Shown here: piece after piece, positions 7,898-52,012 of the stretch
Position numbering within the stretch: the first letter of the stretch is position 1
How the letters are laid out: every line of letters begins with the position of its first letter
DNA from: a phage
Sequence record: PV730302.1
DNA: 64,000 bases
Strand: one strand, 5' to 3'
Position numbers and translations under genes: made by a program
Notes under the pieces: model-generated
Database searches by the model: none
What the model saw: the letters and a program-made list of their open reading frames with translations, nothing else
What the model was told of the DNA's origin: nothing

Positions 7898-7932
7898 AGT
7901 AGTCTCTTAGTGGTGGGGCCATTCCTTGGCAC

Positions 7933-7961
7933 ATAATTCGTCCATGTATCCGTATGTAAAC
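7933..7961 (-). promoter_or_regulatory. possible early promoter (GTTTAC -35, weak -10) without the conserved cassette core
   Basis: minus-strand GTTTAC-N17-AATTAT upstream of ORF 7370-7897. Confidence 0.3.
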
Positions 7962-8057
7962 CCTTTACCGCACTTGGGCTCGACCTTATTACAGGTAGGG
8001 AAAGGTCCATCACTCAGAGGACGCGACGTTCATGAGGAGAGGGCCGGCTTGCCTTTA

Positions 8058-8357
8058 TTAGAAAGAACCAGAACCTCTAATTGTGTTCTGGCGACCTTTA
8101 TTTTCTAATTCATAGTCGTCGATTTCGTAGGCTTGTGCTACACCAAAAGCCTTTTTAACTTTAGCTAAAGAGCCTTTAGACGTAACAATATTAAAAGTAT
8201 TACCTTTGGTAAAATCAACCAAATCCACTTGTACACCCTGTTTACCGAGGCTTGCTACAATAGCATCAACATATTCCTGGTCTAAATTGCCTTGAACTCC
8301 AATTTGAAATACTTTAGGAGCTTTGGCTTCTGTAATAAATTCTTGGTAAGTTTTCAT
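8058..8357 (-). CDS. internal-protein-like (capsid targeting sequence MKTYQEFITE)
   Basis: 99 aa; N-terminal 10 residues match the T4 IP capsid targeting sequence with an I-x-E cleavage motif; paralog of 21257-21565. Confidence 0.7.
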   Translation of the reverse strand: MKTYQEFITEAKAPKVFQIGVQGNLDQEYVDAIVASLGKQGVQVDLVDFTKGNTFNIVTSKGSLAKVKKAFGVAQAYEIDDYELENKGRQNTIRGSGSF

Positions 8358-8399
8358 ATTATTCCTTAAGTTGGTAGAAGTATTCTATCACGGATTTAA

Positions 8400-8816
8400 T
8401 TAAGCGTAAATCGCCTTACCATAATGTTTGTACCAGGTAGGGCGTTGTGCAATTTTTTCGTCCAAACGGGCTTGTGAAATGGCGATAGAAGCTTCGTGAG
8501 GAACATAATCATCACGGAATTCCTGAGGAATGTCACTAATGTCCTGGACAGTAGTATCCTTGATATTAAAACCACGTTTTAAACATTCGGCTATAAGCTC
8601 AATTTGTCGCTTACGTAAAAATTCAAGCTTATCGTAAAAGAATGTAACATGGCCTGTGCCAAGGATAAAAGTAGGACTGATTTTGAAATCACGGACACGT
8701 TTACCATTAGCAACATGCTTACGAACTGCACCGAAAACACGTGGTAATTCACGATATTCAGCCATTAAGTGTTGGTCAGCCAATTCAGATACTAAGGTAA
8801 GGTTGATACGAGTCAT
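8400..8816 (-). CDS. denV: endonuclease V, pyrimidine-dimer DNA glycosylase
   Basis: 138 aa; [31 protein letters not shown]... essentially identical to remembered T4 EndoV. Confidence 0.95.
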
Positions 8817-8832
8817 TTTTAATCTCCTGTAG

Positions 8833-8872
8833 TTGATAGGTCTATAGTATCATGACTACAGGAGATGTAAAC
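8833..8872 (-). promoter_or_regulatory. early promoter/stem-loop cassette upstream of denV
   Basis: same architecture; inverted repeat CTCCTGTAG/CTACAGGAG brackets the -10. Confidence 0.7.
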
Positions 8873-8896
8873 AACTTTTATCAAGTATCGGCTTTA

Positions 8897-9493
8897 TTAA
8901 TTACCACGGGCTGCATTAGCAACGGCGTAAGCGTACTGAATATTAGCGTCTTTAAACGTACCTTTAGAGGTATCTATTTCTGCCTTAAAGCCGCCTTTAG
9001 CCATAACATCGGCAAATTCTTTACGGAAAGTCATTGCATCAAGACCTTTCCATGTTGATTTGTGCTTGGCAAATTCAAGACCAGCGAAGTTGACAGCCTT
9101 AGCCAATTTATTATCAATAGTCCATTTACCTGCTTTAGGTACAAACACCGGGCCTTTCTGTTTAGAGAACAGTTTTAAATTCCAGCGACGAAGGTCACCG
9201 TCAGCTTTAACAAAAGCTGCGTCCAAGTTACTAGCAACAACATCTTGGATATGGGCAAATTTAAGTCCATCAGCTTCAATATTTAGGTCGTTACGCCAGC
9301 GAAGTCCTTCCCAGGCGAAAGCTTTAAAGTCGGAAGCTTTTGTAGCCAAGTACCGTTCAATAGGAGCTGTTTTAGCGTCAAAACCGTTTCCTGGGTTGTC
9401 AACGCCGTTTCCTTTGTAAGTCCACTCATCTTTATTAATGCCTTGGACCTTTCCTACAGAAGCTTCGGCGATAAATTCTTTATACGTTTTCAT
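8897..9493 (-). CDS. internal-protein-like (CTS MKTYKEFIAE), ipII/ipIII locus
   Basis: 198 aa; CTS at N-terminus; lies between denV and e as ipII/ipIII do in T4. Confidence 0.7.
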   Translation of the reverse strand: MKTYKEFIAEASVGKVQGINKDEWTYKGNGVDNPGNGFDAKTAPIERYLATKASDFKAFAWEGLRWRNDLNIEADGLKFAHIQDVVASNLDAAFVKADGDLRRWNLKLFSKQKGPVFVPKAGKWTIDNKLAKAVNFAGLEFAKHKSTWKGLDAMTFRKEFADVMAKGGFKAEIDTSKGTFKDANIQYAYAVANAARGN

Positions 9494-9540
9494 ACGGGTT
9501 CCTTAAAGGTAAATATTTTAATTGGTCTGTTCAAGTAACT

Positions 9541-9575
9541 GTAGATATACTATCACAATTCTAGGAGATGTAAAC
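9541..9575 (-). promoter_or_regulatory. early promoter, degenerate cassette variant
   Basis: GTTTAC at 9570-9575 (minus sense); core GTAGATATACTATCA. Confidence 0.45.
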
Positions 9576-9974
9576 TTATTTGTAGGTCTTCATCCAATTC
9601 TTGAACAAAGCCGCGACGTCTTTCTCTTTAACGTTCAGTTTAATGTCCAACATTTTACCACCGGCAGCACGTGTCTGACGAATCTTAGCAGTACCGGTTT
9701 CGCCATTCCACTCAACATAATACTGCCCAGTGTTCATTGCAATACCATCGCCGTAGTCTTCATTTTTAGAAGTTGTGAAGGCCAGCTTCATAGTCTTAGA
9801 TACACGAGCCTGCATGCCAGTCTGAAGGGCATTACGAACGCGAATAACTTGAGGAGTGGCCTGGGTCAGGTTCTCATTCAGTTCTTCAGTGAACTCTTCA
9901 GATTCAAACATCGCCAAAAGTTCTTTAGATGCAGGAATTACATTCTCTGCGATAAATTCATTATAAGTTTTCAT
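9576..9974 (-). CDS. internal-protein-like ([13 protein letters not shown]), ipII/ipIII locus
   Basis: 132 aa; CTS at N-terminus; immediately downstream of e. Confidence 0.7.
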
Positions 9975-10455
9975 ATGCTTTCCAAGTACCTGTTTTAAAT
10001 GTTGAAATCACGCGCTTAGCACGATTAGGAGTTTGTTTATACCAACGGGATTGAGCCAGGTTAACTGCCGCATCGTTCCAACGTTTCTGTTGGAGCATAC
10101 GTAAAGAGTTAGTGAACCCTGCTACGCCTGCTTCACCCATTTGGAAGACCATGTTAATTAAAGCACAACGACGAACTTCGTCCAGTACATCATAAACAGG
10201 TTTCAATTTAGGATTACGCAGAATAGCTCTACGAGCATTTTCAACCGATCGGTTAAAGAGTTGTTCAGCTTCAGCCATAGTAATACGACCATTACAAACT
10301 CGACCCATAAGCTTATCAAGTTCAGCACGAGCAACATCTTTAGAAGGGTTCTTAGTAATCAATTGGCCAATACCAATAGTCCAATAACCTTCAGTGTCTT
10401 TATAAAGATTTAAATCAAGACCTTCGTCTTGACGTAACATATCAAAAATATCCAT
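9961..10455 (-). CDS. e: endolysin (T4 lysozyme family)
   Basis: 164 aa; [13 protein letters not shown]...[13 protein letters not shown] with E11, D20, T26 conserved; same length as T4 lysozyme. Confidence 0.95.
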
Positions 10456-10478
10456 AATACCTCCTGAGTATAGGAGGT

Positions 10479-10486
10479 ATTTATAT
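10479..10486 (-). promoter_or_regulatory. late promoter TATAAATA for gene e, adjoining the SD-sequestering hairpin
   Basis: minus sense TATAAATA-CCTCCT-ATACTC-AGGAGG-TATT-ATG. Confidence 0.7.
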
Positions 10487-10932
10487 CAAAAGAGCGAATC
10501 TAAAACCTTAAACATCGACGGGCCCATGACATATTCCCATTGCGGACGTTTAATCAAAGCGAACGCATCGAATTCAGGAATAGTACGACCATCAGGGAAC
10601 GTATGGTAAGCCGTACATTTGCAATCCTTGAACTGCTCGTGTTCCACAGGCACTGTATATAAGAACAGATGTAGATTCTTATTGCTTGAATATTTGAACT
10701 CACCCAGGTCTTTCAGGAATGCAGGATCGTATGCTGTGAATCCAATCTCTTCTTCGGTTTCGCGCATTGCCGCTTGAATAGGCTCTTCGCCTGGTTCGAC
10801 ATGGCCTTTAGGAATGTCCCATTTATGACGCATGTTCTCTGGATTACGAGAGCCTGTTACACGACCCATGACCAGTTCTTTATCAACGGTCATGAACAAA
10901 ATACCTGCCGATAATTCCTTAGCTTTCTTACC
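10486..10932 (-). CDS. nudE: Nudix hydrolase
   Basis: Nudix box GHVEPGEEPIQAAMRETEEEIGF; start set at internal MGKKAKEL (149 aa, T4 NudE is about 151). Confidence 0.8.
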   Translation of the reverse strand, partial: GKKAKELSAGILFMTVDKELVMGRVTGSRNPENMRHKWDIPKGHVEPGEEPIQAAMRETEEEIGFTAYDPAFLKDLGEFKYSSNKNLHLFLYTVPVEHEQFKDCKCTAYHTFPDGRTIPEFDAFALIKRPQWEYVMGPSMFKVLDSLF

Positions 10933-11164
10933 CATCGTCTCGTTCCCATGATTGTTTAAAAATATCTTGCATAATAATTTGAAGTCTATTTTCTGATGAT
11001 GGACTTTCACTATCAGACACTTGAAGCATATAGTCACCAATAGGACAGAACATATCCATATCGCTTTCTAAGTCTTCTTTAATTTTCTCTTCTGATGTTC
11101 CGGTATCATAGGAATACAGATAAGAATCACATGACTCAGATTTAATATAAATTGCAATACTCAT
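10928..11164 (-). CDS. hypothetical small acidic protein
   Basis: ORF track 78 aa. Confidence 0.35.
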   Translation of the reverse strand: MSIAIYIKSESCDSYLYSYDTGTSEEKIKEDLESDMDMFCPIGDYMLQVSDSESPSSENRLQIIMQDIFKQSWERDDG

Positions 11165-11748
11165 TTACGGCATTCCTTAATAAAAGAGTTTAATGTATTT
11201 TTCTTAGTGATATCGTCATATACCTTTTTAACTTTAGAAATACGAAAAGGTACTTCGATAACAGAGGTCCATAAAAATGATGCGATAAGACCCAAGATAG
11301 CAGCAGACATCGCTGAAGCGAATACACAAATAGGCAGGTCATTATCTGTTGTCAGGAAAAACCATAGGAGTGGGAAAAATAATATACCCATCCAAACATA
11401 GAATCTAGAACTCACCAATTTGTCGTATTCATCACTCCATGCACGGAAGCCGTATTTTTTGCTATAACAAATCAATGGGTCTGGAGTCTGTTCTTTATGT
11501 GGTTCCGCTTGCCAGCCGTTTACGATATAGCCCATTTTATATTCCTCAATTAAAAGCTGTTTCATTTCGGCAGTACAACCTGACCAATCTATTGTACTGG
11601 CTGAAATTCCTTCATCACCGTCATCGATATTTCGCCAGGACTTTTTAATAATCATAGTCTCACCACTTGGGATAATAATTCCAGCATTTTCCGACCGACG
11701 GATGAAGTTTGTATCAATACCCATACAACCAGGTTCATAAAGGGCCAT
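11161..11748 (-). CDS. membrane protein with C-terminal ...NSFIKECRK motif
   Basis: 195 aa; two hydrophobic helices; C-terminus paralogous to ORFs at 15802-16155 and 16148-16684. Confidence 0.5.
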   Translation of the reverse strand: MALYEPGCMGIDTNFIRRSENAGIIIPSGETMIIKKSWRNIDDGDEGISASTIDWSGCTAEMKQLLIEEYKMGYIVNGWQAEPHKEQTPDPLICYSKKYGFRAWSDEYDKLVSSRFYVWMGILFFPLLWFFLTTDNDLPICVFASAMSAAILGLIASFLWTSVIEVPFRISKVKKVYDDITKKNTLNSFIKECRK

Positions 11749-12437
11749 TACCAGCCCTCCATAGGGAATTCCAGATATACTTGAGCATTAACGCGGATTT
11801 CATTTGTAATCTTTTTAACACGGTCTGTATTACGAGACACACGACCAAACCAGCGCCACCCATTACTTACTGCACGAGAACCTGTATGCCATGTCTGCCA
11901 ATCAAACTGGAGCAACGTGCGGTCAGGAGCATCCCACTTGGTTAATTCATTGGACTCAATTTTTTCCAGAACTTCTTTATGCCACTGGCGATAGATAAGT
12001 TCGCCTTCAGGAATCTGACTGAACTGTGCAGTTCCGGTTGCAAAATGAGTAGGACACACATCAGCATTAACAAGACCAAGAATATGTTCAGAATGGTATC
12101 GAGGATTATCATAATCAGGTTGCCCTGCGGTAATAAAGTGTTGACCCACCGGAATATCCGGGCGTGGTACATCATCATGGTGGAAGCCTGGAATTGCAGG
12201 GTACCAGCCAGGCATTAACATGTGTACACGGGAATCAAATACAATATCAGGGCCACATTGCCAATCTTCAGGCAGGTTTTCAATAAAGCTACGAGTAATA
12301 GGACCACCGTGTTTATGAGCAAAATAAGCATCGCAATTAAAGAACATAGGCTCATTTTTAATCATATCATTACTGATATCTTGAGCAAAACCACCGACTG
12401 CACGAGCTTGAGAATTAAAAGTTTTCGGGCCGTTCAT
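11748..12437 (-). CDS. hypothetical protein (His/Asp-rich, possible metal-dependent enzyme)
   Basis: 229 aa ORF; GFHHDDVPRPD and HSEH motifs. Confidence 0.5.
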   Translation of the reverse strand: MNGPKTFNSQARAVGGFAQDISNDMIKNEPMFFNCDAYFAHKHGGPITRSFIENLPEDWQCGPDIVFDSRVHMLMPGWYPAIPGFHHDDVPRPDIPVGQHFITAGQPDYDNPRYHSEHILGLVNADVCPTHFATGTAQFSQIPEGELIYRQWHKEVLEKIESNELTKWDAPDRTLLQFDWQTWHTGSRAVSNGWRWFGRVSRNTDRVKKITNEIRVNAQVYLEFPMEGW

Positions 12438-12451
12438 AATATTTTCCTCAC

Positions 12452-12666
12452 TTACTTTTTGTTGAAAAAGTACATTTTACCTTTAGGGGATAAGGATACA
12501 CGAAGTGCGTTACCAATACCAACTGAACATTTAACCAGGTCAGCAGATTTCAATTCACCAAATGCTTGACGAAGGTCACCGTCACGAGTGTTAACCATCA
12601 GGCATTTAGCACCAGCTGCACGAACTTCGTTTAACATGTTGATTGCTTGGTTAGAAAGTTTCATTT
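12452..12666 (-). CDS. hypothetical protein
   Basis: start moved to MKLSNQ (SD GGAG 6 nt upstream); early promoter cassette directly upstream. Confidence 0.5.
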
Positions 12667-12690
12667 TATTCTCCATTTCACTCTGTTGTT

Positions 12691-12730
12691 TTGATAGGTC
12701 TATAGTATCACACCTATAGACCTTGTACAC
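12691..12730 (-). promoter_or_regulatory. early promoter/stem-loop cassette (core TTGATAGGTCTATAGTATCA; -35 GTGTAC)
   Basis: inverted repeat GGTCTATAGG/CCTATAGACC; upstream of ORF 12452-12666. Confidence 0.6.
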
Positions 12731-12742
12731 TGTTTTGTGTAA

Positions 12743-13702
12743 TTATTTTTCGAAAGGACGAATTAAATGTTGGTTATCTTGGAAACGCTTGATGTAGTCG
12801 TTTTCACCTAAAGTCTTGTACATATTAACCACCGCTTGGTAGTTTTCCCAGGCGTACTCGCGGAACCAACCTGAAGTGATTGAGGTGCACACTTTCTCAA
12901 GAGCCATATAGAAACTTAATGATGGCGAAATATTAAAGTCATTAGGAACCTGTGAACGTTCTAGTGCCAGGACACAAGTTTCTTCATACACACCGGCCAA
13001 TTTAATAGCTTCAGGCAAAGCTTCAAACTTCTCACGAGAGGTCATGACTTCAGAACCATCCTTCATATAAAAGGTATATGCAGGGCGGCCTGCCAATGCT
13101 ACTGCTTCGTGGATGGAGTCATGGTCCAGCGTATAAATGGTATCATTAAAGAATGATGATTTGTTAACGTCTAATTTAGGGTGAGAATAGCTCAACGTTT
13201 CTTTTTGACGTTGCAGCATAATTTCCTGGAGTTCTTCGTTCAGGGTCACGCCTTTATTACGAAGGTATTTGATGTGGGACATAGTTTTCAAGAAGAACGG
13301 ATTATTCTTAAGGAAACGATGAGAGGTTTTGATAGCCAGACAGATATCAGGGGTTGCCCAATAGAAACCAGTAAGACGGTCCTTTTTAATATGATTTTCA
13401 GCATATTTCAGGAGACGATAGCTTGAAGTGAAATCTTCGTCTTGAAGCTCACCGGTAATTTCTCGTACGTTAGTCAGAGCACGAACGATATAAGCTTCAA
13501 AATAGGTTTCTTTACCATTATGCATACATTTGAAAGCCTGGACATCAGGATTGTCAACGTGTACATGGGCACCAAACATCCGAGCTTTAAAGTGATTCCA
13601 TGAGCCTTGGTCGGCAATGAAATCCCAATCAGAATTTTCGATATGCTTACTTTCAATCAGACCAGCGTGGTGCAGTGCACGAGAACCAATAACTAACATC
13701 AT
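12743..13702 (-). CDS. hypothetical 319-aa protein, possible nucleotidyltransferase fold
   Basis: N-terminus IGSRALHH...SDWDF loosely resembles a GS...DxD motif (spacing atypical). Confidence 0.5.
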   Translation of the reverse strand: MMLVIGSRALHHAGLIESKHIENSDWDFIADQGSWNHFKARMFGAHVHVDNPDVQAFKCMHNGKETYFEAYIVRALTNVREITGELQDEDFTSSYRLLKYAENHIKKDRLTGFYWATPDICLAIKTSHRFLKNNPFFLKTMSHIKYLRNKGVTLNEELQEIMLQRQKETLSYSHPKLDVNKSSFFNDTIYTLDHDSIHEAVALAGRPAYTFYMKDGSEVMTSREKFEALPEAIKLAGVYEETCVLALERSQVPNDFNISPSLSFYMALEKVCTSITSGWFREYAWENYQAVVNMYKTLGENDYIKRFQDNQHLIRPFEK

Positions 13703-13715
13703 AATATTTTCCTCA

Positions 13716-13883
13716 TTAGTAGAGACGAGTTACTTCATATTTACCTAGTTCAGATTTTTTTGCTTCAATACGCGTGGCGGCGAGATTAGCGGCCTCTAGT
13801 GAAGAAAATTGAACCACTTGTGAAGTATTCTGCCTTACGCCACCTTGTGGGTGAGTAACAAAAACAATAAGAACATTATACAT
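13716..13883 (-). CDS. hypothetical small protein
   Basis: internal start MYNVLIV with SD GAGGAAAA upstream. Confidence 0.35.
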   Translation of the reverse strand: MYNVLIVFVTHPQGGVRQNTSQVVQFSSLEAANLAATRIEAKKSELGKYEVTRLY

Positions 13884-13902
13884 AATATTTTCCTCAGATA
13901 AC

Positions 13903-14142
13903 TTAAATTTCGGCAACGTAAGTGTTATGCAATTCCCACATATCATCAGAATTGCTCTTAATGATAGGGATTATCTCATTAGAGATTTCTTCAGCATAAG
14001 GGTCATTGATACAGTGGGCATCTTCAAAACGAACACCGTAATCAGACTTCTTATAGGCAAAGCCATAAATCTTTTTAAACTTGGCACGGGTAATGCGTAC
14101 CGGTTCATTAGACTTATCAGACAACGGAGAGTAATACCACAT
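13903..14142 (-). CDS. hypothetical protein
   Basis: ORF track 79 aa. Confidence 0.4.
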   Translation of the reverse strand: MWYYSPLSDKSNEPVRITRAKFKKIYGFAYKKSDYGVRFEDAHCINDPYAEEISNEIIPIIKSNSDDMWELHNTYVAEI

Positions 14143-14185
14143 ATGTTCTCCTCATGTTTGTGTAGGGTAATAGTAACACGTATTT

Positions 14186-14536
14186 TTAGAGTTGTACATC
14201 ACTTCTGCAATATTCTAAAAATAATTTATCGTTGTCTACCGTATCCCAACGACGCCAAGATGGATTCCAGACCAAAGCGTTGTCACCACAATCATTGAGC
14301 TTAAAATGGTCGTAGTACATAGCTATACGTCTAGTTTCGTCACCAGAGAACCCCAGTATAGGCTCGCCGTGGGTGTGATACATATGATGGTGCATTGAGA
14401 GGTCGCATTTGTAAAACATCTCACGTTTACCACGAACGAACAAGAAGGCTTGCCCATTCATATAGAATTCTTTATCTGTTTTCAAAAGATATTTGAATAC
14501 TGAATCTTTATGCATAAGTCCTCCTACCACATCCAT
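14186..14536 (-). CDS. hypothetical protein (His-rich HHHMYHTH segment)
   Basis: ORF track 116 aa. Confidence 0.45.
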   Translation of the reverse strand: MDVVGGLMHKDSVFKYLLKTDKEFYMNGQAFLFVRGKREMFYKCDLSMHHHMYHTHGEPILGFSGDETRRIAMYYDHFKLNDCGDNALVWNPSWRRWDTVDNDKLFLEYCRSDVQL

Positions 14537-14545
14537 GTGGTTAAA

Positions 14546-14773
14546 TTATTTTCCTAACGAAACACGAGTAGGTTTTTTACCAAAATAGTCTTCGTAAGAA
14601 CCATCTAAACGGCCTGCTTTAGACCGACAATACGAATCATACTTTTTGTAATAAGTCATCTCGGTATTATAACGTGGGTGTCTATCAGCCATAATAATAC
14701 TTAACGGCCAACCTTTGGCATAATCGCGAAGACCATTTATTTTACGAATGTATCTTTTCTTTAATTTTAGCAT
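14546..14773 (-). CDS. hypothetical basic protein
   Basis: ORF track 75 aa. Confidence 0.4.
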   Translation of the reverse strand: MLKLKKRYIRKINGLRDYAKGWPLSIIMADRHPRYNTEMTYYKKYDSYCRSKAGRLDGSYEDYFGKKPTRVSLGK

Positions 14774-14991
14774 GAGCTCGGATACCAGATTTTACCATCG
14801 GCCTGAGCAACGAAGGTGCGACCAGCTTCTTCACCATAACAAGAGCTATTCAGCCAATCTTCGAGACGAACTTCACCGTCATAATCATCGAGCTCAACAC
14901 CGAAATCCTGGGCAGAAGCCATATCTTTTACTTTCTTATACAGTGCAGCCAGTTCAAGAGCAGCTTTTTCTAATTCATTAATATCAGACAT
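14767..14991 (-). CDS. C-terminal-Cys family small protein, member 4 (ends WYPSSC)
   Basis: start set at MSDINELEK; shares N-terminal helix, central aromatic/Gly motif and terminal W-x-SS-x-C with three upstream paralogs. Confidence 0.55.
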   Translation of the reverse strand: MSDINELEKAALELAALYKKVKDMASAQDFGVELDDYDGEVRLEDWLNSSCYGEEAGRTFVAQADGKIWYPSSC

Positions 14992-15001
14992 TTTTATTTC
15001 C

Positions 15002-15214
15002 TTAGCAAGACATAGAAGAAGTAAACCAGAAACCATCACCATCAGGAATGCCGTAATCATCACGGACCCATTCATAATCATCATATTCCGGGTTCTTTGG
15101 AGAAATGTATTGTCCACGACCAGAAACATGGAACTCTTCACCCGTTTCGTCAGCCACAGACTGGCCTTTACGTACTAATTCACGGATTTGGTTTTCAATT
15201 TCATCAATAGTCAT
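15002..15214 (-). CDS. C-terminal-Cys family small protein, member 3 (ends WFTSSMSC)
   Basis: ORF track 70 aa; paralog. Confidence 0.55.
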   Translation of the reverse strand: MTIDEIENQIRELVRKGQSVADETGEEFHVSGRGQYISPKNPEYDDYEWVRDDYGIPDGDGFWFTSSMSC

Positions 15215-15223
15215 TTTATTTCC

Positions 15224-15505
15224 TTAACATTCAGAAGAAGAGGACACCCAACCACCATTTTCTAGGCTGGTAGTGTAATCATGTTGGTTTACAATAGCGT
15301 ACTGAGCTTCACCGTATTCTTCCCAGTGGGCAAGGTCGGCTTTCAAGGCGCCAGGAGAATAATAGTCACCGCCCATACCGCGAGCAGGGTATATATTAAA
15401 ATGAGTCTCATATTTGTTTGCAATTTCCTCGGCACGACGAATAGCTTTATGGATATCATTTACTGCTTCAGCCAATTCTTTATTTTTATGGTAATCATTC
15501 ATCAT
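15224..15505 (-). CDS. C-terminal-Cys family small protein, member 2 (ends GWVSSSSEC)
   Basis: ORF track 93 aa; paralog. Confidence 0.55.
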   Translation of the reverse strand: MMNDYHKNKELAEAVNDIHKAIRRAEEIANKYETHFNIYPARGMGGDYYSPGALKADLAHWEEYGEAQYAIVNQHDYTTSLENGGWVSSSSEC

Positions 15506-15514
15506 AGCGTTTCC

Positions 15515-15805
15515 TTAGCACATTGCCGAAGAGGAGATCCAAGCACCAACTGTAACGACGCCATTTTCAACTTCACCACCGTTGTTTTCAATTTCATCTT
15601 TAAACCACTGGGAGCATTCATAACCGACAGGATAATATGTACGGCCTGAACCATAATCACCGGTACCGAATTGGATACCATACTTATCGGCAATAGCTTC
15701 ACATTCATGTTCGATGGTATTCACTTTATTCAGAAGAGCATAGATAGCCTTTTCTGCAGATTTCTCGTCATTGTGTTCCGGGATTTCAATTTCAATTTTA
15801 TTCAT
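15515..15805 (-). CDS. C-terminal-Cys family small protein, member 1 (ends AWISSSAMC)
   Basis: ORF track 96 aa; paralog. Confidence 0.55.
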   Translation of the reverse strand: MNKIEIEIPEHNDEKSAEKAIYALLNKVNTIEHECEAIADKYGIQFGTGDYGSGRTYYPVGYECSQWFKDEIENNGGEVENGVVTVGAWISSSAMC

Positions 15806-16155
15806 GATTTACATTCCTTAATAAAGGTTTCAAGGTCATTACGTTTAGTTTGTTTTACATACTCATTATAATTAGCCATAGCTAAAGCATATCTCTTTTT
15901 ACGTGGCTTGTTTATTTTATTAGTTTGGGCAATATCAAAGACCCATGGGATAAAAAATCCTATTAAAGCCGGAACCCAAATCCATGCAAGGCTCATATCT
16001 TCAAACGGATGGCGAGGCATACCATTAATAATCCCACCGACAAGAAATCCAATTATCCCTGCAGTCATACTAGTAGCAATGCCGAGGAATAAGGAAATAG
16101 CTATATCATAATCTGCTAATGCGTAACCAGGGTCGGTTTTACTAGGCTTATGCAT
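15802..16155 (-). CDS. membrane protein with C-terminal ...ETFIKECKS motif
   Basis: start set at MHKPSK (SD AAGAGG upstream); TM helices; C-terminus paralogous to 11161-11748. Confidence 0.5.
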   Translation of the reverse strand: MHKPSKTDPGYALADYDIAISLFLGIATSMTAGIIGFLVGGIINGMPRHPFEDMSLAWIWVPALIGFFIPWVFDIAQTNKINKPRKKRYALAMANYNEYVKQTKRNDLETFIKECKS

Positions 16156-16684
16156 TTTGAACCTCTTTAGCGTATTCGCGACATTCAGCAATAAAACGAT
16201 TAAGCTTACGTTGTTGTTTACGACTTTCTAATGTGTACTCATTAGCCAAAATAATAAGCTCATCTTTATCGTAATTTTTAATATCAGAGTAAGATGGGCG
16301 ACGGTCAACCATTCCAAATACATCACCATTTTCTAAAGCTACATAACATACTAAATGGTAATCATCGTCTGCCATATTAAGAAGCACACAATCAGCGCTC
16401 TCGTTTAAAGAATATACCGAATAACGTAGTCCAGCGAATTCCACTCGTTGAATAGCCAGATTTACGTCAATAATTTCCAAAGCATCTTCAAAAGAAAGGT
16501 CTTCAGCTAAAGCAAAAATAAAAGGTAATTTGGTAGTATCGCCACGGCTAGATGTTCTGCTTAAGAAATCGTTTGAATAGCCTAGGTCTTGGCGAATTCT
16601 ATAAAGAACTGAATTAGTTTCATGTGAAAGACCACTATGCTTAAACCAATCAATATTTGATATCAGGTCGTCATATAAACTCAT
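16148..16684 (-). CDS. hypothetical protein with C-terminal ...LNRFIAECREY motif
   Basis: ORF track 178 aa. Confidence 0.5.
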   Translation of the reverse strand: MSLYDDLISNIDWFKHSGLSHETNSVLYRIRQDLGYSNDFLSRTSSRGDTTKLPFIFALAEDLSFEDALEIIDVNLAIQRVEFAGLRYSVYSLNESADCVLLNMADDDYHLVCYVALENGDVFGMVDRRPSYSDIKNYDKDELIILANEYTLESRKQQRKLNRFIAECREYAKEVQNA

Positions 16685-16707
16685 AATATTCTCCTCTCCT
16701 CCAAATA

Positions 16708-16725
16708 GGGAGACCGAAGTCTCCC
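16708..16725 (-). terminator. UUCG-tetraloop hairpin GGGAGAC-UUCG-GUCUCCC
   Basis: perfect 7-bp stem just downstream of ORF 16733-17326; identical hairpin follows gene 23 on the plus strand. Confidence 0.5.
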
Positions 16726-16732
16726 AGTAACA

Positions 16733-17326
16733 TTACTTAAGTGAATTAATGTAGTCTTCGATATCAGCAGAAGTCGTATCCATTCCAACTTGTGGGCCTT
16801 TAAACGTTTCTACACGAAGCAGGGTGTCTTCAATATCAATCTTAGTCAATGCAGCGATTTCAACAACATCATCGGCAGTAGCAATACCCAGGGCAGCCAT
16901 ATTACGAGTTTCACGAATGTACTCAAGCTTAACCGCTAGTTCCTGGCGAGAGTCATCAAGTTCCTTGACCTTAAGCTTAATTTCATTACGCATTTCAACA
17001 TAATCATCGGCTTTCTTACGAAGTTGAGTAGCCGTACGACGATAAAGGAGGCCGAGTTTAGCATGTACCTGGACATCGGCACCTTCTTTAATCAGTTTAC
17101 GAATTTCGCGTTCTTTGGAACTAGCCAGTTGGTCCTTTTCGTTAGCGAGTTCACGAATACGTTTTTCTTCATTCACAGACTTAACATGGGCAGTCTGGAG
17201 CTCAGTGATTTTATCAATCAGAGTAGAAGCAGCTTTGGTGTATTGGTCTTCGATTGACAGGTTCTGAGCCATTGCAGTACCCAATTTGGAACGGATGAAT
17301 TCAACGATTTTCTTTAAAGTGTTCAT
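16733..17326 (-). CDS. coiled-coil protein (possibly PspA/IM30-like)
   Basis: 197 aa; heptad-rich charged sequence throughout. Confidence 0.5.
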
Positions 17327-17350
17327 AGTATTTCCTTCAGTTGGTTAAGA

Positions 17351-17399
17351 TTTATAATCCATGAGGACATTATACCCTGTCCTCTGAGGGTTGTAAACA
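17351..17399 (-). promoter_or_regulatory. early promoter (GTTTAC -35, TATAAT -10) with flanking inverted repeat GAGGAC/GTCCTC
   Basis: read on minus strand; upstream of ORF 16733-17326. Confidence 0.6.
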
Positions 17400-17402
17400 T
17401 TT

Positions 17403-17801
17403 TTATTTCATTTTTGCGAGGCAAATTTCATTGGCTTCCCATTGAGCTTGCTTAATAATAGCTTTGGATACAGGAGCCCTTTGGCCATAAGTTTTTGACG
17501 TTGAGAGAACAATACATTTGTTTGCTTCATTATGCCAGCCCCATGATTTTTCGCCATGGGTACCTTTAATTACAGCAGACACCTCAACAGAGCAACCACC
17601 ATCAGAAATCTTGGTTTCGACAATCCATTCATTTCTCTCAGCAGCTTCAAGTTCTAATCTAGTTTTTTCTTCATACATCGCGGCCCAATCAGTTTTTGCC
17701 AAGTTGAAAGCAAGGGCTTTCTCTAATTCTTTGGCATATTTTTGTTGTTCAGGTGTTAATGAATTATACAACTCTTGCATTTCTTTATCTTCGATATTCA
17801 T
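17403..17801 (-). CDS. hypothetical protein
   Basis: ORF track 132 aa. Confidence 0.5.
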   Translation of the reverse strand: MNIEDKEMQELYNSLTPEQQKYAKELEKALAFNLAKTDWAAMYEEKTRLELEAAERNEWIVETKISDGGCSVEVSAVIKGTHGEKSWGWHNEANKCIVLSTSKTYGQRAPVSKAIIKQAQWEANEICLAKMK

Positions 17802-17820
17802 TATGTTCTCCTCAAATTAT

Positions 17821-17856
17821 GGGCTCATAATATCTTAATCATGAGCCCGTGTAAAC
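17821..17856 (-). promoter_or_regulatory. early promoter variant with inverted repeat GGGCTCAT/ATGAGCCC
   Basis: GTTTAC at 17851-17856 (minus sense); SD GAGGAG then ATG of ORF 17403-17801. Confidence 0.5.
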
Positions 17857-17859
17857 ATT

Positions 17860-18123
17860 TTATTTCATATTATTGAAATAATCTTCCGCATCAAAATCGT
17901 TATCATGGTAAACTTTGGTAGACGATTTGGCGTAGCCTTCAGCTGAGAACATATTAATCACAACTTTAATTGTATACCACTGTCCATCTTCATTACCCAT
18001 TACTGCATAGGTTTCATACACTGGGTGTTCAGGACCGATAACTTTAATATCGTTAACTGTAGCACCAAATTCTTCCGGAACACATTTCATAAAGAAATTA
18101 AACACTTCACCATAATTATCCAT
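17860..18123 (-). CDS. hypothetical protein
   Basis: start set at MDNYGEV (SD AAGGAG); promoter cassette upstream. Confidence 0.5.
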   Translation of the reverse strand: MDNYGEVFNFFMKCVPEEFGATVNDIKVIGPEHPVYETYAVMGNEDGQWYTIKVVINMFSAEGYAKSSTKVYHDNDFDAEDYFNNMK

Positions 18124-18147
18124 TTTACTCTCCTTCACACTGTTGTT

Positions 18148-18188
18148 TTGATAGGTCTATAGTATCATGTTCTACGAAAGAGTAAACA
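18148..18188 (-). promoter_or_regulatory. early promoter/stem-loop cassette (core TTGATAGGTCTATAGTATCA on plus strand)
   Basis: minus sense GTTTAC-N17-TACTAT with TGn extended -10. Confidence 0.65.
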
Positions 18189-18217
18189 TCTTTTTTAAAC
18201 TTTTTAGAAACAAAAAA

Positions 18218-18239
18218 GGCCCAACCTTTCGGAAGGGCC
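18218..18239 (-). terminator. intrinsic terminator hairpin GGCCC-UU-CC-GAAA-GG-UU-GGGCC plus U-run (minus sense)
   Basis: follows stop of ORF 18245-18820; A-run on plus strand 18212-18217. Confidence 0.6.
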
Positions 18240-18244
18240 TAGAA

Positions 18245-18820
18245 TCAGTTCTTGTAGAACCGGAACGGGTTTACATGGAAGGCTAACATGGCCTTAGGGA
18301 TTTTACGAGACAAAAGGCTCTTAAGCTTCCAACCACAGTACACGCGAAGGTAAAAGGTAATCCCACCAACCTTAAGATATGGAACTGAAGCAAATACACC
18401 CCAGGCGTCGTCATTCCACATCCATAACCACCCGTGATGAGCTTTATCAGGAGAACCGGATTCAACGTCAGGATTACCACGATAATGGAATTCTGAGCTA
18501 CAATCACGACCGAGTTTATGGTAAGCAAAGTTATAAGCTTTATTTCGCCATAGCCAAGCTACTCTCTGGAGATAAACACCACCTGGCATTTTCCTGATTT
18601 TAGCCCAACGTTTAATGTGACCTTTGTCACCGTCAATTGGATTATCGTATGTCATCATCCAATCAAAGCCATAAGGCAATTTACCGGTCTTTTTATTGTG
18701 GAAAGGAACTACAAAAGGCGCAAGGATAACAGCCAGAACCATAGAGATAAAATCCAGTGGAACCAACAGAACCCAACTCAAATATTTTAAAAGTTTCATA
18801 TATTTCTCTAATTTAACCAA
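18245..18820 (-). CDS. membrane protein (hypothetical)
   Basis: 191 aa; N-terminal TM helices; Trp-rich C-terminal domain. Confidence 0.55.
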   Translation of the reverse strand: MVKLEKYMKLLKYLSWVLLVPLDFISMVLAVILAPFVVPFHNKKTGKLPYGFDWMMTYDNPIDGDKGHIKRWAKIRKMPGGVYLQRVAWLWRNKAYNFAYHKLGRDCSSEFHYRGNPDVESGSPDKAHHGWLWMWNDDAWGVFASVPYLKVGGITFYLRVYCGWKLKSLLSRKIPKAMLAFHVNPFRFYKN

Positions 18821-18821
18821 A

Positions 18822-18841
18822 AAAGCCCCAGATGGGGCTTT
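18822..18841 (-). terminator. intrinsic terminator AAAGCCCC-AUCU-GGGGCUUUUUU (minus sense)
   Basis: hairpin plus U-run directly after stop of ORF 18844-19308. Confidence 0.65.
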
Positions 18842-18843
18842 CG

Positions 18844-19308
18844 TTATTTGATTTGTTTAGCAGACCAGATACGGTCTTTGATGATTTTCTGAATATCTTC
18901 AACATACTCTAAGTCGTGAGCATGCGGATTATCTTTGAAGCTATGTGCTCGTGCTAGTTTCTGGCCTTCTGTTTTGATTACTAAAAGCTCTTTAAGAATT
19001 GCTTCATACTTAGAAATAATTCCTTTGGCGATATTTTTTTCTTGAGCGGCTTTAGGGTCTGCTTTTGTAGCAGGTGCTTTACCTGTAGCTTTCTGGAACA
19101 ATTCACCTGATGCAGCTAGGCTTTTAAAAACTCGGCTAACAGTATTAGCATTAGTAAAACCTTCGGCTTTAAAATCTCTAATAAAACGGAAACGTTCTTC
19201 ATCAGAGGCGTCTTTGTAAGAATATTTACCTGCTTGAATTGCTGCAATCGCAGCGGCTTTTACATCTGAACTAGATTGTTCAGTCAAAAATTCATTGTAA
19301 GTTTTCAT
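18844..19308 (-). CDS. internal-protein-like (CTS MKTYNEFLTE)
   Basis: 154 aa; N-terminal CTS-like decapeptide. Confidence 0.65.
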   Translation of the reverse strand: MKTYNEFLTEQSSSDVKAAAIAAIQAGKYSYKDASDEERFRFIRDFKAEGFTNANTVSRVFKSLAASGELFQKATGKAPATKADPKAAQEKNIAKGIISKYEAILKELLVIKTEGQKLARAHSFKDNPHAHDLEYVEDIQKIIKDRIWSAKQIK

Positions 19309-19353
19309 TATTATTTCCTAAGTTAATTAACTTATCTATTTATTATGCCAAAA

Positions 19354-19377
19354 AGCCCCAACCTTTCGGAAGGGGCT
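19354..19377 (-). terminator. intrinsic terminator hairpin, compensatory variant of the 18218 hairpin
   Basis: AGCCCC-AA-CC-TTTC-GG-AA-GGGGCT on plus strand with A-run upstream (U-run in minus sense); closes the tRNA region. Confidence 0.55.
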
Positions 19378-19758
19378 ATGCCTTGCGGCAACCTTGTCGG
19401 GGTTCCACCTGCTAGGCAAGTGTTTGTACGAAACGCCGGGATTCGAACCCGGTTATTAAGTAGTTGACGCTACTCAATATTTTTAAAAGGCCATATCTCG
19501 ACCATATCCGAACGTTCCGTCAAAAACGCTACTCGGCTTACGGCAAAGATATTTCCTCGAATCGATAATTCGGTGCGCCGTTTCTGCTGTGATGTAAGGG
19601 GACGTTAACAGATCGTAAAGATTTGTTAATGTCAGTCCTTATTCAGGGAACATCAGTCCGACGACTTACCGGTAGCGACCCGGTTTCTTGTTTGGTGCGC
19701 CGGTGAATGCTGGTAATCAGTCTTCATACGACGGCTTGACTATATAATAGTCTTCATT

Positions 19759-19833
19759 TGGTATCCCGCCCTGGGATCGAACCAGGACCGCAAACTTAGA
19801 AGGATCGTATGCTATCCATTACACCAGCGGGAC
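19759..19833 (-). tRNA. tRNA-Arg (anticodon TCT), CCA encoded
   Basis: manual fold of minus strand: 7-bp acceptor stem, T-loop TTCGATC, anticodon loop CTTCTAA. Confidence 0.85.
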
Positions 19834-19838
19834 ATAGT

Positions 19839-19915
19839 TGGTGACCCGGACCAGATTTGAACTGGTAACCTTTCCCTTATGAGGGGACTGCTTCTAACCA
19901 TTGAGCTACAGGGCC
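19839..19915 (-). tRNA. tRNA with CAT anticodon (elongator Met or lysidine-type Ile), CCA encoded
   Basis: manual fold: acceptor GGCCCTG, T-arm ACCAG-TTCAAAT-CTGGT, anticodon loop CTCATAA; 5 nt from tRNA-Arg. Confidence 0.8.
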
Positions 19916-19920
19916 TTAAT

Positions 19921-20187
19921 TTAAATTACAAATCCAGCAGGAGCATTATCATCTTTAGCCATGTGCTGAATTGTATGATAAGTCATTTCTTCAGGAGCAA
20001 CCAGATAAGCCGCAACGTTAACTAGTGGAATTATTTTTGGTTTAGCGAACGTGCTATCAGAAATTGCCATAAAGGGCTCGCCGTCTCGTTCAACTTCGCC
20101 AAATTGGCATTCATATGAAATAGAACAACGTTTGGTAGTTGTTGTCTTGGTTTTAGGGTCATAAAAAGCTAATTTTAATACTAACAT
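19921..20187 (-). CDS. hypothetical protein
   Basis: ORF track 88 aa. Confidence 0.4.
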   Translation of the reverse strand: MLVLKLAFYDPKTKTTTTKRCSISYECQFGEVERDGEPFMAISDSTFAKPKIIPLVNVAAYLVAPEEMTYHTIQHMAKDDNAPAGFVI

Positions 20188-20315
20188 AACACCTCAAATA
20201 AAATTAAGTAAAGTAAGTTTAATTAATAGACCTTGTCTATTATGAAAGGTTCTTTGAGGGAAGAACCTTTGGTAATAGAGGGTATTAATGATAGAGTAAT
20301 AATATCACATAATTC

Positions 20316-20600
20316 TTAAAGCATATTAATGTAATCAAGTTTAATAGAAGCAATCTTCAAAGGATTTTTAAAGATGTCGTATTCGACCAATCCGTTTTCA
20401 GTTGCGGTATAAAAAGTAAAGTTAACAGAATTATAACGTTGGCTGTTAACTTTGAGTTTAACGTCGCTTGAACTACGGCCAATATTAACCTGTTGGACAT
20501 CAAGCACGGCATCTTTGCCAAAGTTGCGAATCAGTAGCTCTGCTGCAACCTGGTCTGAATTATATCCATTCTCTGGATTAGTAACCTTAACGTATAGCAT
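20316..20600 (-). CDS. hypothetical protein
   Basis: ORF track 94 aa. Confidence 0.45.
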   Translation of the reverse strand: MLYVKVTNPENGYNSDQVAAELLIRNFGKDAVLDVQQVNIGRSSSDVKLKVNSQRYNSVNFTFYTATENGLVEYDIFKNPLKIASIKLDYINML

Positions 20601-21002
20601 TTAACCCTCGTCTACAATAGTATGGGTATTAGCATTAACAATCTGCCACCAGTCAAAACGATCGGAGCCGTAAAGAAACTTATTCTCGTTTTCTTTAACA
20701 ATTTCACGTAGTTCATCTTCAGTGGCAGCTTTAGCGATTAAATCGGTATAGCCACCACGTGGATAGTAGTTATCACCCGCGAACAGAAGGAAATTTACTT
20801 TACCAGAAGGAACATATGCTTCCTTAGGATACTTGTTTCCTGCTTGGTCTACCACTTCAATATAACGGTAAGGAATATCGGTACTTTCAACCCATTGCCA
20901 AGCTGCAGCAGGGGATTCAAAAGCATCTACACCTAAACGGTTATCTTCATCTTTAGACGGATTATTTTCATAATCCGCATATGCATAATATTCAACGTTC
21001 AT
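20601..21002 (-). CDS. hypothetical protein
   Basis: ORF track 133 aa. Confidence 0.5.
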   Translation of the reverse strand: MNVEYYAYADYENNPSKDEDNRLGVDAFESPAAAWQWVESTDIPYRYIEVVDQAGNKYPKEAYVPSGKVNFLLFAGDNYYPRGGYTDLIAKAATEDELREIVKENENKFLYGSDRFDWWQIVNANTHTIVDEG

Positions 21003-21187
21003 TATTCACCTTTAGAGATTTTATCCATAACGATAGCGATTAAGCCGATTAGAAATGCTACTACCAATGAGATAGAATTTTCTGTTGTTGTCAGTAGTCC
21101 ACAAATGAATCCTACAAACATCGAAAAACTAAAAGCCATTGAAGCAATTACTACAGCAACATTACGAATCAGTTCAGCGCGTTTCAT
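21002..21187 (-). CDS. small membrane protein
   Basis: 61 aa, one to two TM helices; promoter cassette upstream. Confidence 0.4.
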   Translation of the reverse strand: MKRAELIRNVAVVIASMAFSFSMFVGFICGLLTTTENSISLVVAFLIGLIAIVMDKISKGE

Positions 21188-21204
21188 TTTATTCTCCTCA
21201 GTAG

Positions 21205-21244
21205 TTGATAGGGTAATAGTATCACTACCCTATCTAAAAGTAAA
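21205..21244 (-). promoter_or_regulatory. early promoter/stem-loop cassette (variant core TTGATAGGGTAATAGTATCA)
   Basis: GTTTAC at 21239-21244 in minus sense. Confidence 0.55.
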
Positions 21245-21256
21245 CGGTTTTATAAA

Positions 21257-21565
21257 CTATTTTATTCCGCGTGATGCAATCGTATTCTGCCGTTTAACGC
21301 CAGTTTGTTTAAAGTTATGATTGTCGAGTTGATCGGTACGAGCAACTCCGAATGATGATTTAATCTTAGCTTTAGATCCTTTAGTTATAGAAATAAACAT
21401 CTCGGGAGCCCCTTTCTTAAAGTCCGAAGCAATTACTTCAACACCGTTCTTAGCAAGTGACCTCAGAATTGCTTCCACATACTCATCATCAAGACCCGCT
21501 TGAGTATGAATAACGAATGTCTTTGGTGCAGCCGCTTCATTGATAAATTCTTTATAGGTTTTCAT
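21257..21565 (-). CDS. internal-protein-like (CTS MKTYKEFINE), ipI-like position next to 57B
   Basis: 102 aa; CTS; paralog of 8058-8357 with shared motifs along the whole length. Confidence 0.7.
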   Translation of the reverse strand: MKTYKEFINEAAAPKTFVIHTQAGLDDEYVEAILRSLAKNGVEVIASDFKKGAPEMFISITKGSKAKIKSSFGVARTDQLDNHNFKQTGVKRQNTIASRGIK

Positions 21566-21584
21566 TTTATGTTCCTAATTAATT

Positions 21585-21625
21585 TTGATGAGATAATAGT
21601 ACCACAACCCTATTTAAAAGTAAAC
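21585..21625 (-). promoter_or_regulatory. early promoter/stem-loop cassette (variant)
   Basis: GTTTAC at 21620-21625 in minus sense. Confidence 0.5.
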
Positions 21626-21898
21626 TCATTTTAAATAAATTGCATACTTTTTATAACCGGCCGTTTCGTGACGCAGCCCTTTTTCATTAGCAAAACGTTC
21701 AATATTGTTAATTTGATTCTGGTCGAGTTCTGAAGTATCAAATACAAAAAAGTTTCGCTTATTGCCTAAAGTTACGTGATTAGTCAAATCGATGTTATAG
21801 AGATGATTTATATCATCAATCATAGTCTTAACAGATTTGTTAATTTTTACTTCCTCATTAAGAATAGATTCAGCGATAAATTCTTGATAAGTTTTCAT
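21626..21898 (-). CDS. internal-protein-like (CTS MKTYQEFIAE)
   Basis: 90 aa; exact match to the canonical CTS decapeptide. Confidence 0.65.
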   Translation of the reverse strand: MKTYQEFIAESILNEEVKINKSVKTMIDDINHLYNIDLTNHVTLGNKRNFFVFDTSELDQNQINNIERFANEKGLRHETAGYKKYAIYLK

Positions 21899-21924
21899 TT
21901 TGATTTCCGTGCGGTTAGTTTGTT

Positions 21925-21964
21925 TTGATAGGTCTATAGTATCATGCCTATAGACCTTGTAAAC
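21925..21964 (-). promoter_or_regulatory. early promoter/stem-loop cassette (core TTGATAGGTCTATAGTATCA)
   Basis: GTTTAC at 21959-21964 in minus sense; inverted repeat GGTCTATAGG/CCTATAGACC. Confidence 0.65.
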
Positions 21965-21975
21965 ACCTTTTTAAA

Positions 21976-22653
<678 letters not shown>

Positions 22654-22661
<8 letters not shown>

Positions 22662-51767: not shown

Positions 51768-52012
51768 TGGAAGATTTAATCGAAGCTATTAAATCAAACG
51801 ACCTCGTAGCAGTTCGTAAAGCAGCAGCCCCGCTTATCGAATCTCGAGTAACCGCTTTGATTGAAGCCCGTAAAGCAGAAATTGCTCGCTCCGTTATGAT
51901 TGAAGGCGAAGAAGCTGACGAAGATGACGAAGACGACGAAAAATCCGATAAAGCAGATAAGAAAGACAAAAAAGAATCTGACGATGCGGATGACGACGAG
52001 GACGACGAATAA
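51767..52012 (+). CDS. 67: prohead core protein gp67
   Basis: 81 aa with acidic D/E tail. Confidence 0.9.

Follow-up and report, generated by a model that had tools for sequence, protein, structure and literature searches.

The stretch of DNA considered here, a window of 64 kb (40% G+C) from the phage sequence record PV730302.1, raises the question of why several small genes with dissimilar bodies open with nearly the same ten codons, and whether their products share a destination. The initial annotation had read these openings as the capsid targeting sequence (CTS) of phage T4, with an I-x-E site for the gp21 prohead protease, and had counted seven genes that carry it. Six of these stand (A to F, Table 1): the six open reading frames (ORFs) said to begin MKTY(Q/K/N)EF(I/L)xE are all present on the minus strand, and the ORFs had been placed correctly, except that the positions quoted for them are their low, stop-codon ends and not their starts; the seventh, uvsW.1, is a UvsW.1-domain protein whose N-terminus is conserved by descent, and it is dropped (see below). 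The source of the window is a T4-like coliphage of the genus Dhakavirus (JS98, JS10, WG01, UGJNEcP3); its best database matches have 96-97% identity and, among the matches listed, none covers the window end to end. A to F are very probably internal proteins (Ips) of this JS98/WG01-type phage, packaged in the head, injected into the host, and probably acting there as inhibitors of restriction.

In T4, the three internal proteins IpI, IpII and IpIII, whose number the initial annotation gives correctly, are CTS-bearing cargo of the prohead core (Mullaney and Black, 1996, as reviewed in PMC9026906 and PMC3012670). The CTS of both IpII and IpIII is MKTYQEFIAE, while IpI starts MKTFKEF and is cut at ITE/A (the slash marks the cut here and below). 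A review of the T4 experiments reports that the N-terminal decapeptide of IpIII is sufficient for packaging and names the residues that matter, 4 and 7 in targeting and 8 and 10 in processing (PMC9026906). All six proteins of the window read MKTYxEF, so that position 4 is aromatic and position 7 is Phe, and continue from A to F with ITE, IAE, IAE, LTE, INE and IAE at residues 8-10, each site ending at residue 10. The decapeptide thus matches the T4 CTS, as the initial annotation had proposed, in the form found in IpII and IpIII, and keeps residues 4, 7, 8 and 10.

The strength of this pattern was measured on a set of 559 ATG starts with at least 50 codons before a stop, using two weight matrices, one made from the six genes themselves and the other from the three T4 Ips only. 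With the first, A to F score 30-34 bits versus -7 for the best unrelated start, and with the second 14-33 bits versus -0.6. Counted simply as identities to MKTYQEFIAE, A to F have 7-10 of 10, uvsW.1 has 6 of 10 and every other start has at most 4 of 10. The N-terminal pattern of the six genes is therefore far beyond chance.

Selection acts on the peptide, since synonymous codons vary within the tag (three codons are used across the six genes for T3, two for Y4, three for I/L8 and two for E10) and nucleotide identity among the six genes drops from 77-90% over the 30 nucleotides (nt) of the tag to 23-53% over the following 30 nt. The same is seen within families. In family C, M1, K2, T3, Y4, E6, F7, I8 and E10 are invariant down to homologues of 56% identity, while residues 11-30 are variable, with deletions. 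In family D, Y4, F7, L8 and E10 are kept throughout, even in the T4-type members that read MKSYAQFLNE, and members of the Ip7 family, to which E belongs, have Y or F at position 4, the latter as in T4 IpI. Of note, C also ends in MKTYK (9576-9593); this was considered as a CTS remnant of recombination and rejected, as the ending varies in the family (KTHK, KVHK, K--K) and is the end of a conserved helix.

Table 1. Position of the genes and other elements discussed (aa, amino acids; a slash marks the predicted cut; values after Pfam names are those of the match)
Feature	Position	Strand	Length	Description
A	8058-8357 (start codon 8357)	-	99 aa	MKTYQEFITE/A; Ip7-like family
B	8897-9493 (start codon 9493)	-	198 aa	MKTYKEFIAE/A; IpIII orthologue
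C	9576-9974 (start codon 9974)	-	132 aa	CTS ends IAE/N; family annotated hypothetical
D	18844-19308 (start codon 19308)	-	154 aa	MKTYNEFLTE/Q; family annotated hypothetical
E	21257-21565 (start codon 21565)	-	102 aa	MKTYKEFINE/A; Ip7 family
F	21626-21898 (start codon 21898)	-	90 aa	MKTYQEFIAE/S; Ip9 family
T4-early-type promoter-like site upstream of B	9547-9574	-		TTTACA-16-TAGTAT with TG; consensus match only
T4-early-type promoter-like site upstream of F	21936-21963	-		TTTACA-16-TACTAT with TG; consensus scan
Exact late-promoter motif	10478-10485	-		TATAAATA; upstream of e; the sole one in the scanned stretches
gp67	51767-52012			just upstream of gp21/gp22; Pfam GP67, 3.3e-18
ORF in gp68 position	52012-52440			no Pfam match; assigned by position only
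gp21 prohead protease	52440-53075	+		Pfam Peptidase_S77, 6.4e-103; enzyme expected to remove the CTS
gp22 scaffold core protein	53106-53921	+		Pfam T4_CASP, 5.7e-90; many [LI]xE sites
uvsW.1	61747-61974	+	75 aa	MKTFKEVIQE; Pfam UvsW-1 (PF11637), 2.5e-24
rnaC homologue	19427-19565	-		99.3% identity to T4 rnaC over 139 nt
rnaD homologue	19572-19688	-		86% identity to T4 rnaD over 118 nt

The same phage encodes the machinery that the tag would address, namely the gp21 protease together with gp22, gp67 and, by position only, gp68, which make up the prohead core. Its other head proteins carry maturation sites of the T4 type as well: gp23 has LTE/AEIGGDHGY and gp24 has LKE/S at residue 10. The presence of gp21, gp22 and gp67, together with the fact that four of the six proteins fall in PHROGs families labelled internal head or virion protein, bears out their proposed status as candidate packaged and injected proteins.

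Behind the tag, the bodies are indeed diverse, as had been noted, with the exception of A and E, which are 47% identical to each other in the mature region and are paralogues. B is the orthologue of T4 IpIII: it is 87% identical to it in the mature region, has an isoelectric point (pI) of 9.5, matches phrog_5341 (3e-115) and is annotated ipIII in JS10. A and E both match phrog_2667, labelled 'internal head protein' (2.2e-42 for A, whose mature form is 9.6 kDa with a pI of 8.2, and 3e-41 for E, homologues of which are named 'Ip7' or 'Ip7 protein' in several records). F matches phrog_7673, also labelled 'internal head protein' (2e-56), and the corresponding WG01 note reads 'Ip9 gene product'; F has an additional LNE site at residue 15. 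These database records are the source of the names Ip7 and Ip9 as used here. Homology to a named Ip family is thus present for A, B, E and F and absent for C and D. C belongs to phrog_15461 and D to phrog_2280, both with the function label unknown; they occur in 50 and 512 phage records, respectively (the latter including RB32, RB51 and PP01), and are called 'hypothetical' in all records listed. Alignments of D with its homologues begin at residue 1, and its mature form is of 16 kDa with a pI of 9.5 and 14% Lys. As a set, the mature forms of A to F are 9-21 kDa, with pI values of 6.8-9.9 and 10-14% Lys, like the T4 Ips; most are basic, F being neutral (pI 6.8). By sequence comparison, the mature parts of A, C, D, E and F are unrelated to any T4 Ip. 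C and D look like internal-protein families that have so far gone unlabelled, which is one of the modest new elements of the analysis.

Another is that CTS genes are found outside the two T4 loci. The initial annotation had placed the genes at two loci, for which three sites are a better description: one around denV, with C and B in the e-denV interval and A just past denV; one downstream of rnaC, occupied by D alone; and one from 57B to trna.4, holding F and E. B, C, E and F lie in the intervals that T4 uses, C and B in e-denV, where T4 keeps ipIII and ipII, E in the classical ipI locus, and F adjoining 57B in the position of T4 ipI. A and D lie outside them: T4 has no gene directly past denV, which is followed straight by vs.8, and has only a 284-nt gap where D stands alone between rnaC and the e.x gene block. 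D is preceded by a terminator-like hairpin and by a near-match (7/8) to the late-promoter motif, AATAAATA. The start of C overlaps the last 14 nt of the lysozyme gene e (9961-9974), leaving C without room for a promoter of its own; in JS10, C is located after ipIII and not against e. The start of C (ATGAAAACTTATAA) is made from the final codons of e (…GCA TAT GAA AAC TTA TAA).

The DNA upstream of several of these genes is conserved beyond the CTS. B, E and F are preceded by early-type blocks of the form GTTTAC-N17-TA[G/C]TAT (that of E, GTTTAC...TACTAT, lies at ~21596-21625), and the T4 ip genes carry the same early-type blocks, to which those of the window are homologous. The promoter and leader of B are homologous to those of T4 ipIII. 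Over a block of 59 nt, made up of 37 nt of leader and the opening 22 nt of the CTS, E has 91.5% identity to T4 ipI, with an unrelated cargo behind it. The picture suggested by these alignments is that of a conserved promoter-leader-CTS head to which exchangeable cargo would be attached. An exact late-promoter motif, TATAAATA, was found upstream of none of the six genes in the stretches scanned (7900-10700 and 18700-22800), and late read-through from the single copy upstream of e could extend into C and B.

Comparison with close relatives agrees with such an exchange, as Ip gene content differs among genomes that are ~96% identical. Considering the tag as an address label on interchangeable cargo explains how near-identical genomes can differ in their cargo. 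In UGJNEcP3 there is an additional IpII orthologue. WG01 has one extra CTS ORF of 69 aa at the ipI site, as well as a 73-aa gene annotated 'internal virion protein' that the CTS pattern does not catch, and no further strict CTS gene was found in the WG01 genome outside the region of the window. JS10 has four CTS ORFs in the equivalent stretch, one of which is unannotated. This ORF (L001:14984-15274, EU863409.1), between trna.4 and 57B, encodes 97 aa and starts MKTYQEFIKESTDLYS; the ipI interval is empty but for this ORF, which is probably an internal-protein gene overlooked in the annotation. More widely, a strict CTS-coding DNA pattern retrieved 127 ORFs from public viral contigs, the mature parts of which form ~38 unrelated clusters, some of them up to 364-388 residues long. 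The six genes of the window are thus twice the T4 count and within the range seen in related genomes.

These features are close to those of known systems. Like the T4 IpI, IpII and IpIII proteins, A to F have in common the decapeptide, the (I/L)-x-E gp21 site and a similar size and charge, and B, C, E and F share both the intervals and, where blocks are present, the homologous promoter and leader regions; in contrast to T4, with its three genes, the window has six, none of them an orthologue of IpI or IpII, and two sites that T4 does not use, those of A (after denV) and D (after rnaC). The Ips of T-even phages have been described as a diverse set with only the CTS in common (PMC3012670). Ip families were recognized by their signal sequence by Repoila et al. 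in 1994 (as cited in PMC3012670 and PMC12373910), and at least ten Ips are reported with reference to that study (Repoila et al., 1994, as cited in PMC12373910). A and E match the variable family labelled Ip7 and F that labelled Ip9, and here too the cargo appears swapped behind a conserved promoter-leader-CTS block; C and D are without an Ip label in PHROGs or in the GenBank records listed, although they may have been named in 1994. An expanded repertoire, as implied by the initial annotation, is therefore not novel in itself, variable Ips marked only by the CTS being on record from Repoila et al. (1994) onwards (cited in PMC3012670 and PMC12373910). For six genes the observation holds, its reading is essentially textbook and the phenomenon is long established; given the Ip diversity known since 1994 and the results obtained in 2025 on inhibition of GmrSD enzymes by the T4 proteins Ip1-Ip3, the finding is correct but ordinary.

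Inhibition of GmrSD type IV restriction is reportedly also the subject of work by Bair, Rifat and Black in 2007-2008. In the 2025 study, the three T4 proteins were found to inhibit one GmrSD type IV restriction enzyme each, a different one in every case; the T4 Ips are ejected into the host with the DNA, and their genes are called non-essential (PMC12373910). Packaging, cleavage, injection and targets in the present phage can be inferred as follows. During prohead assembly, MKTYxEF(I/L)xE would tether each protein to the gp22/gp67/gp68 core. Cleavage by gp21 after Glu10 of the (I/L)-x-E site would then release a mature protein of 9-21 kDa inside the head. The mature proteins would lodge among the packaged DNA and be ejected with it into the next host, where they would act before any phage gene is expressed, most likely by specific inhibition of GmrSD-family type IV enzymes. 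A role as inhibitors of enzymes that attack modified phage DNA is suggested by analogy with T4 Ip1-3. Support at the sequence level is confined to B, as Ip3, with which it shares 87% identity, is the protein that inhibits GmrSD of E. coli ECOR17 (PMC12373910). The other five proteins share with Ip1-Ip3 the predicted delivery route and the genomic hotspot, which Silas et al. (2025, PMC12373910) propose as a store of inhibitors against other GmrSD variants; in contrast, their mature domains have no sequence or fold likeness to Ip1 or Ip2.

The enzymes concerned may also differ from those met by T4, since the DNA of this phage is predicted to be arabinosylated and not glucosylated: arabinosylated 5-hydroxycytosine is the modified base predicted for Dhakaviruses from comparative genomics (PMC13326640). 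A GmrSD-family enzyme, BrxU, cleaves arabinosylated DNA (PMC13390438), and it is a reasonable inference, by analogy, that A to F include inhibitors of enzymes attacking such DNA. Entering with the DNA before phage gene expression, internal proteins are a first answer to restriction enzymes that could otherwise destroy it and, as each known T4 Ip disarms one GmrSD variant, any further cargo family is a candidate for blocking a defence enzyme that still lacks a known inhibitor. Family C, with 50 genomes, and family D, with 512, could accordingly be relabelled as probable internal proteins and included in anti-defence screens, and the Dhakavirus Ips are a reasonable place to seek inhibitors of enzymes that attack DNA with arabinosylated cytosine. 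The CTS is in addition an engineering tool for loading foreign proteins into T4 heads, for which natural variants reveal the positions that tolerate change. The practical gain from this window is nonetheless modest.

Several points weigh against reading all six proteins as packaged and injected inhibitors. Profile and structure searches with the mature domains, suggested in the initial annotation as a check, yielded no relative of known function for any of them, whether by Pfam (no match above threshold for A to F), by PDB sequence searches (nothing significant, and none for C or F), by fold searches with models of E and C or by an exhaustive profile search with C, which returned family members only, along with short repeat-like beta-propeller matches uninformative on function. 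The model of E (pLDDT 77) has a generic ferredoxin/ACT-like beta-alpha-beta fold, with TM scores of 0.4-0.5 and no specific match, and that of C (pLDDT 62) is too low in confidence to rely on. A flagellin likeness of family C, suggested by a weak PDB match (E = 0.01), was discarded, being unsupported by the model or the fold search. The literature offered no usable virion proteomics for this phage, for Dhakaviruses or for families C and D, and the anti-restriction role is argued from analogy for every protein other than B. The residue that follows the cut is unusual in C (Asn) and D (Gln), the T4 Ips and A, B and E having Ala there and F having Ser. Lastly, apart from the 7/8 match upstream of D, no late-promoter motif lies within 200 nt upstream of A to F, so that expression at the time of prohead assembly is assumed from T4.

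Composition raises a further objection, since the basic, lysine-rich mature forms fit equally well a role mainly in DNA packing (PMC3012670). The six proteins could in this case be packaged as proposed, with the main job of neutralizing or organizing the DNA and aiding its ejection, anti-defence being limited to a few of them. About 1000 Ip molecules are present per T4 head, with lysines touching DNA phosphates (PMC3012670), and the IpIII of this phage retains 87% identity to that of T4 despite the different DNA modification predicted (PMC13326640), which fits a role independent of the type of modification. However, a structural role predicts neither the dozens of unrelated cargo folds suggested by the ~38 clusters nor the gain and loss of genes between genomes that are ~96% identical; it does not suit F, which is neutral; and all three T4 Ips have specific GmrSD targets, in addition to being encoded by non-essential genes (PMC12373910). 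A mainly structural, DNA-packing role is thus a live alternative for the basic members, although as an account of the whole set it is the less likely one, with perhaps one chance in a few.

Injection of A to F as anti-defence proteins could also be part of something broader, in which the CTS copies the end of the gp23 propeptide and the set of capsid-targeted proteins extends past the recognized Ips. The observation behind this idea concerns gp61.1, a protein of 53-54 aa encoded in the early region, outside the window, in ~1400 T4-like genomes. It starts with MKTYKEFIKE, a perfect CTS, in T4-type phages and with MKSFKEVMNE in WG01 (L005:16627-16788), and it aligns to residues 55-99 of gp23 (54105-54239 in the window) with a pairwise E of 1e-8. 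In this alignment, the CTS of gp61.1 falls exactly on the gp23 cut, FGSFLTE/AEIGG, which hints at mimicry of the end of the gp23 propeptide by the CTS and gives, as a further modest new point, a side lead on the origin of the CTS itself. When scored with the CTS weight matrix, the gp23 junction ranks 45th of 22,642 positions, with 2.8 bits, a value that is suggestive and not significant by itself. This extension is speculative and rather improbable at present; if it were true, packaging, or competition for the site that binds the CTS, would be expected of gp61.1 and conceivably of UvsW.1, and C and D would be further injected effectors against enzymes attacking arabinosylated DNA.

The case of uvsW.1, counted as the seventh capsid-targeted protein in the initial annotation, is more doubtful still. 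At 10-17 bits it does stand well clear of every other non-Ip start, it shares with T4 IpI an F at position 4 and has I-Q-E/A at positions 8-10, and its start codon overlaps the stop of uvsW. Against this, its position 7, which matters for targeting (PMC9026906), is Val and not Phe, and its composition is very acidic (pI 4.3, net charge -9). It matches the UvsW.1 helicase-associated domain and, at 5e-28, the solved structure of T4 UvsW.1 (PDB 2jpn), and it is encoded by a universal core-region gene (1339 records), unlike the variable Ip genes. Furthermore, the pattern M-x-x-F-(K/N)-x-(F/V/I)-(L/I/R)-x-E-A is found at the N-terminus of UvsW.1 in Tegunavirus, Bragavirus, Krischvirus, Slopekvirus and an Aeromonas phage, the version in T6 being MLLEFKQFLYEA. 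As it recurs across T4-like genera (six), the likeness of uvsW.1 to the tag is best seen as an ancestral feature of the family and not as an acquired tag. Taken together, the UvsW-1 domain, the 2jpn match, the acidity and the conserved N-terminal pattern make it a very unlikely Ip.

Finally, that the shared N-terminus is an element acting at the level of RNA or translation initiation, or the trace of a recent gene conversion, is hardly credible: codons 2, 6 and 7 are AAA, GAA and TTT in every one of the six genes, and loose look-alikes of the form MK[TS]FKEV... on uvsW.1 and gp61.1, both of which lack an internal-protein annotation, indicate that MK-rich starts are common in these genomes, but the variation at synonymous sites of T3, Y4, I8 and E10 under fixed residues, the invariance of the tag in family C where the adjoining sequence diverges, and the experimental sufficiency of the same peptide for packaging in T4 (PMC9026906) all speak against it.

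A capsid-targeted internal-protein set of the kind proposed for A to F has a parallel in the giant phages phiKZ and SPN3US, where an N-terminal propeptide also targets proteins to the prohead and a gp21-related protease cuts after Glu; their propeptides are often longer than 100 residues, with the motif A/S-x-E, in contrast to the short T4-type decapeptide seen here (PMC5694885). Domain fusion behind the tag may also occur, judging from P0041, a metagenomic protein of 194 aa with a degenerate CTS-like start, MKSFDQYIME/S. Its residues 92-192 match the core of family C (E = 1.4e-25) and its N-terminal half resembles, by eye, another cluster of CTS cargo, so that cargo domains may be shuffled and fused behind the tag. 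In T4, the Alt protein is another packaged ejection protein processed by gp21 (PMC5694885). WG01 has three tandem Alt-like ADP-ribosyltransferase genes annotated, along with two adjacent head vertex (gp24-like) genes (L007:23345-29457 and L007:7577-10140, outside or beside the region of the window); the window itself has a single gp24 ORF, at 55921-57201.

The rest of the window follows the T4-like order, with vs.8, denV, e, nudE, a variable e.x block, tRNAs, trna.2-4, 57B and 57A and, further along, the head genes 20, 67, 68, 21, 22, 23 and 24, then uvsW. Between the gene for tRNA-Arg and gene D lies an ORF-free stretch that holds, by BLAST against T4, homologues of the T4 stable RNAs rnaC and rnaD; no Rfam family matched this stretch upstream of D. 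The identity of the rnaC homologue to that of T4 is far above the 80-90% band typical of most other phage records at that region. In the variable e.x block, four tandem small ORFs of ~70-96 aa (14767-15805, minus strand) look like paralogues, with endings of the form W-[IVFY]-[STP]-S-S..C (...WISSSAMC, ...WVSSSSEC, ...WFTSSMSC and ...WYPSSC). Three other ORFs on the same strand (11161-11748, 15802-16191 and 16148-16684) have (L)-x-x-F-I-(A/K)-E-C-(R/K) at or near their C-terminus; this motif is the top non-Ip match to the core of the CTS, and two of the three ORFs also hold hydrophobic, membrane-like segments.

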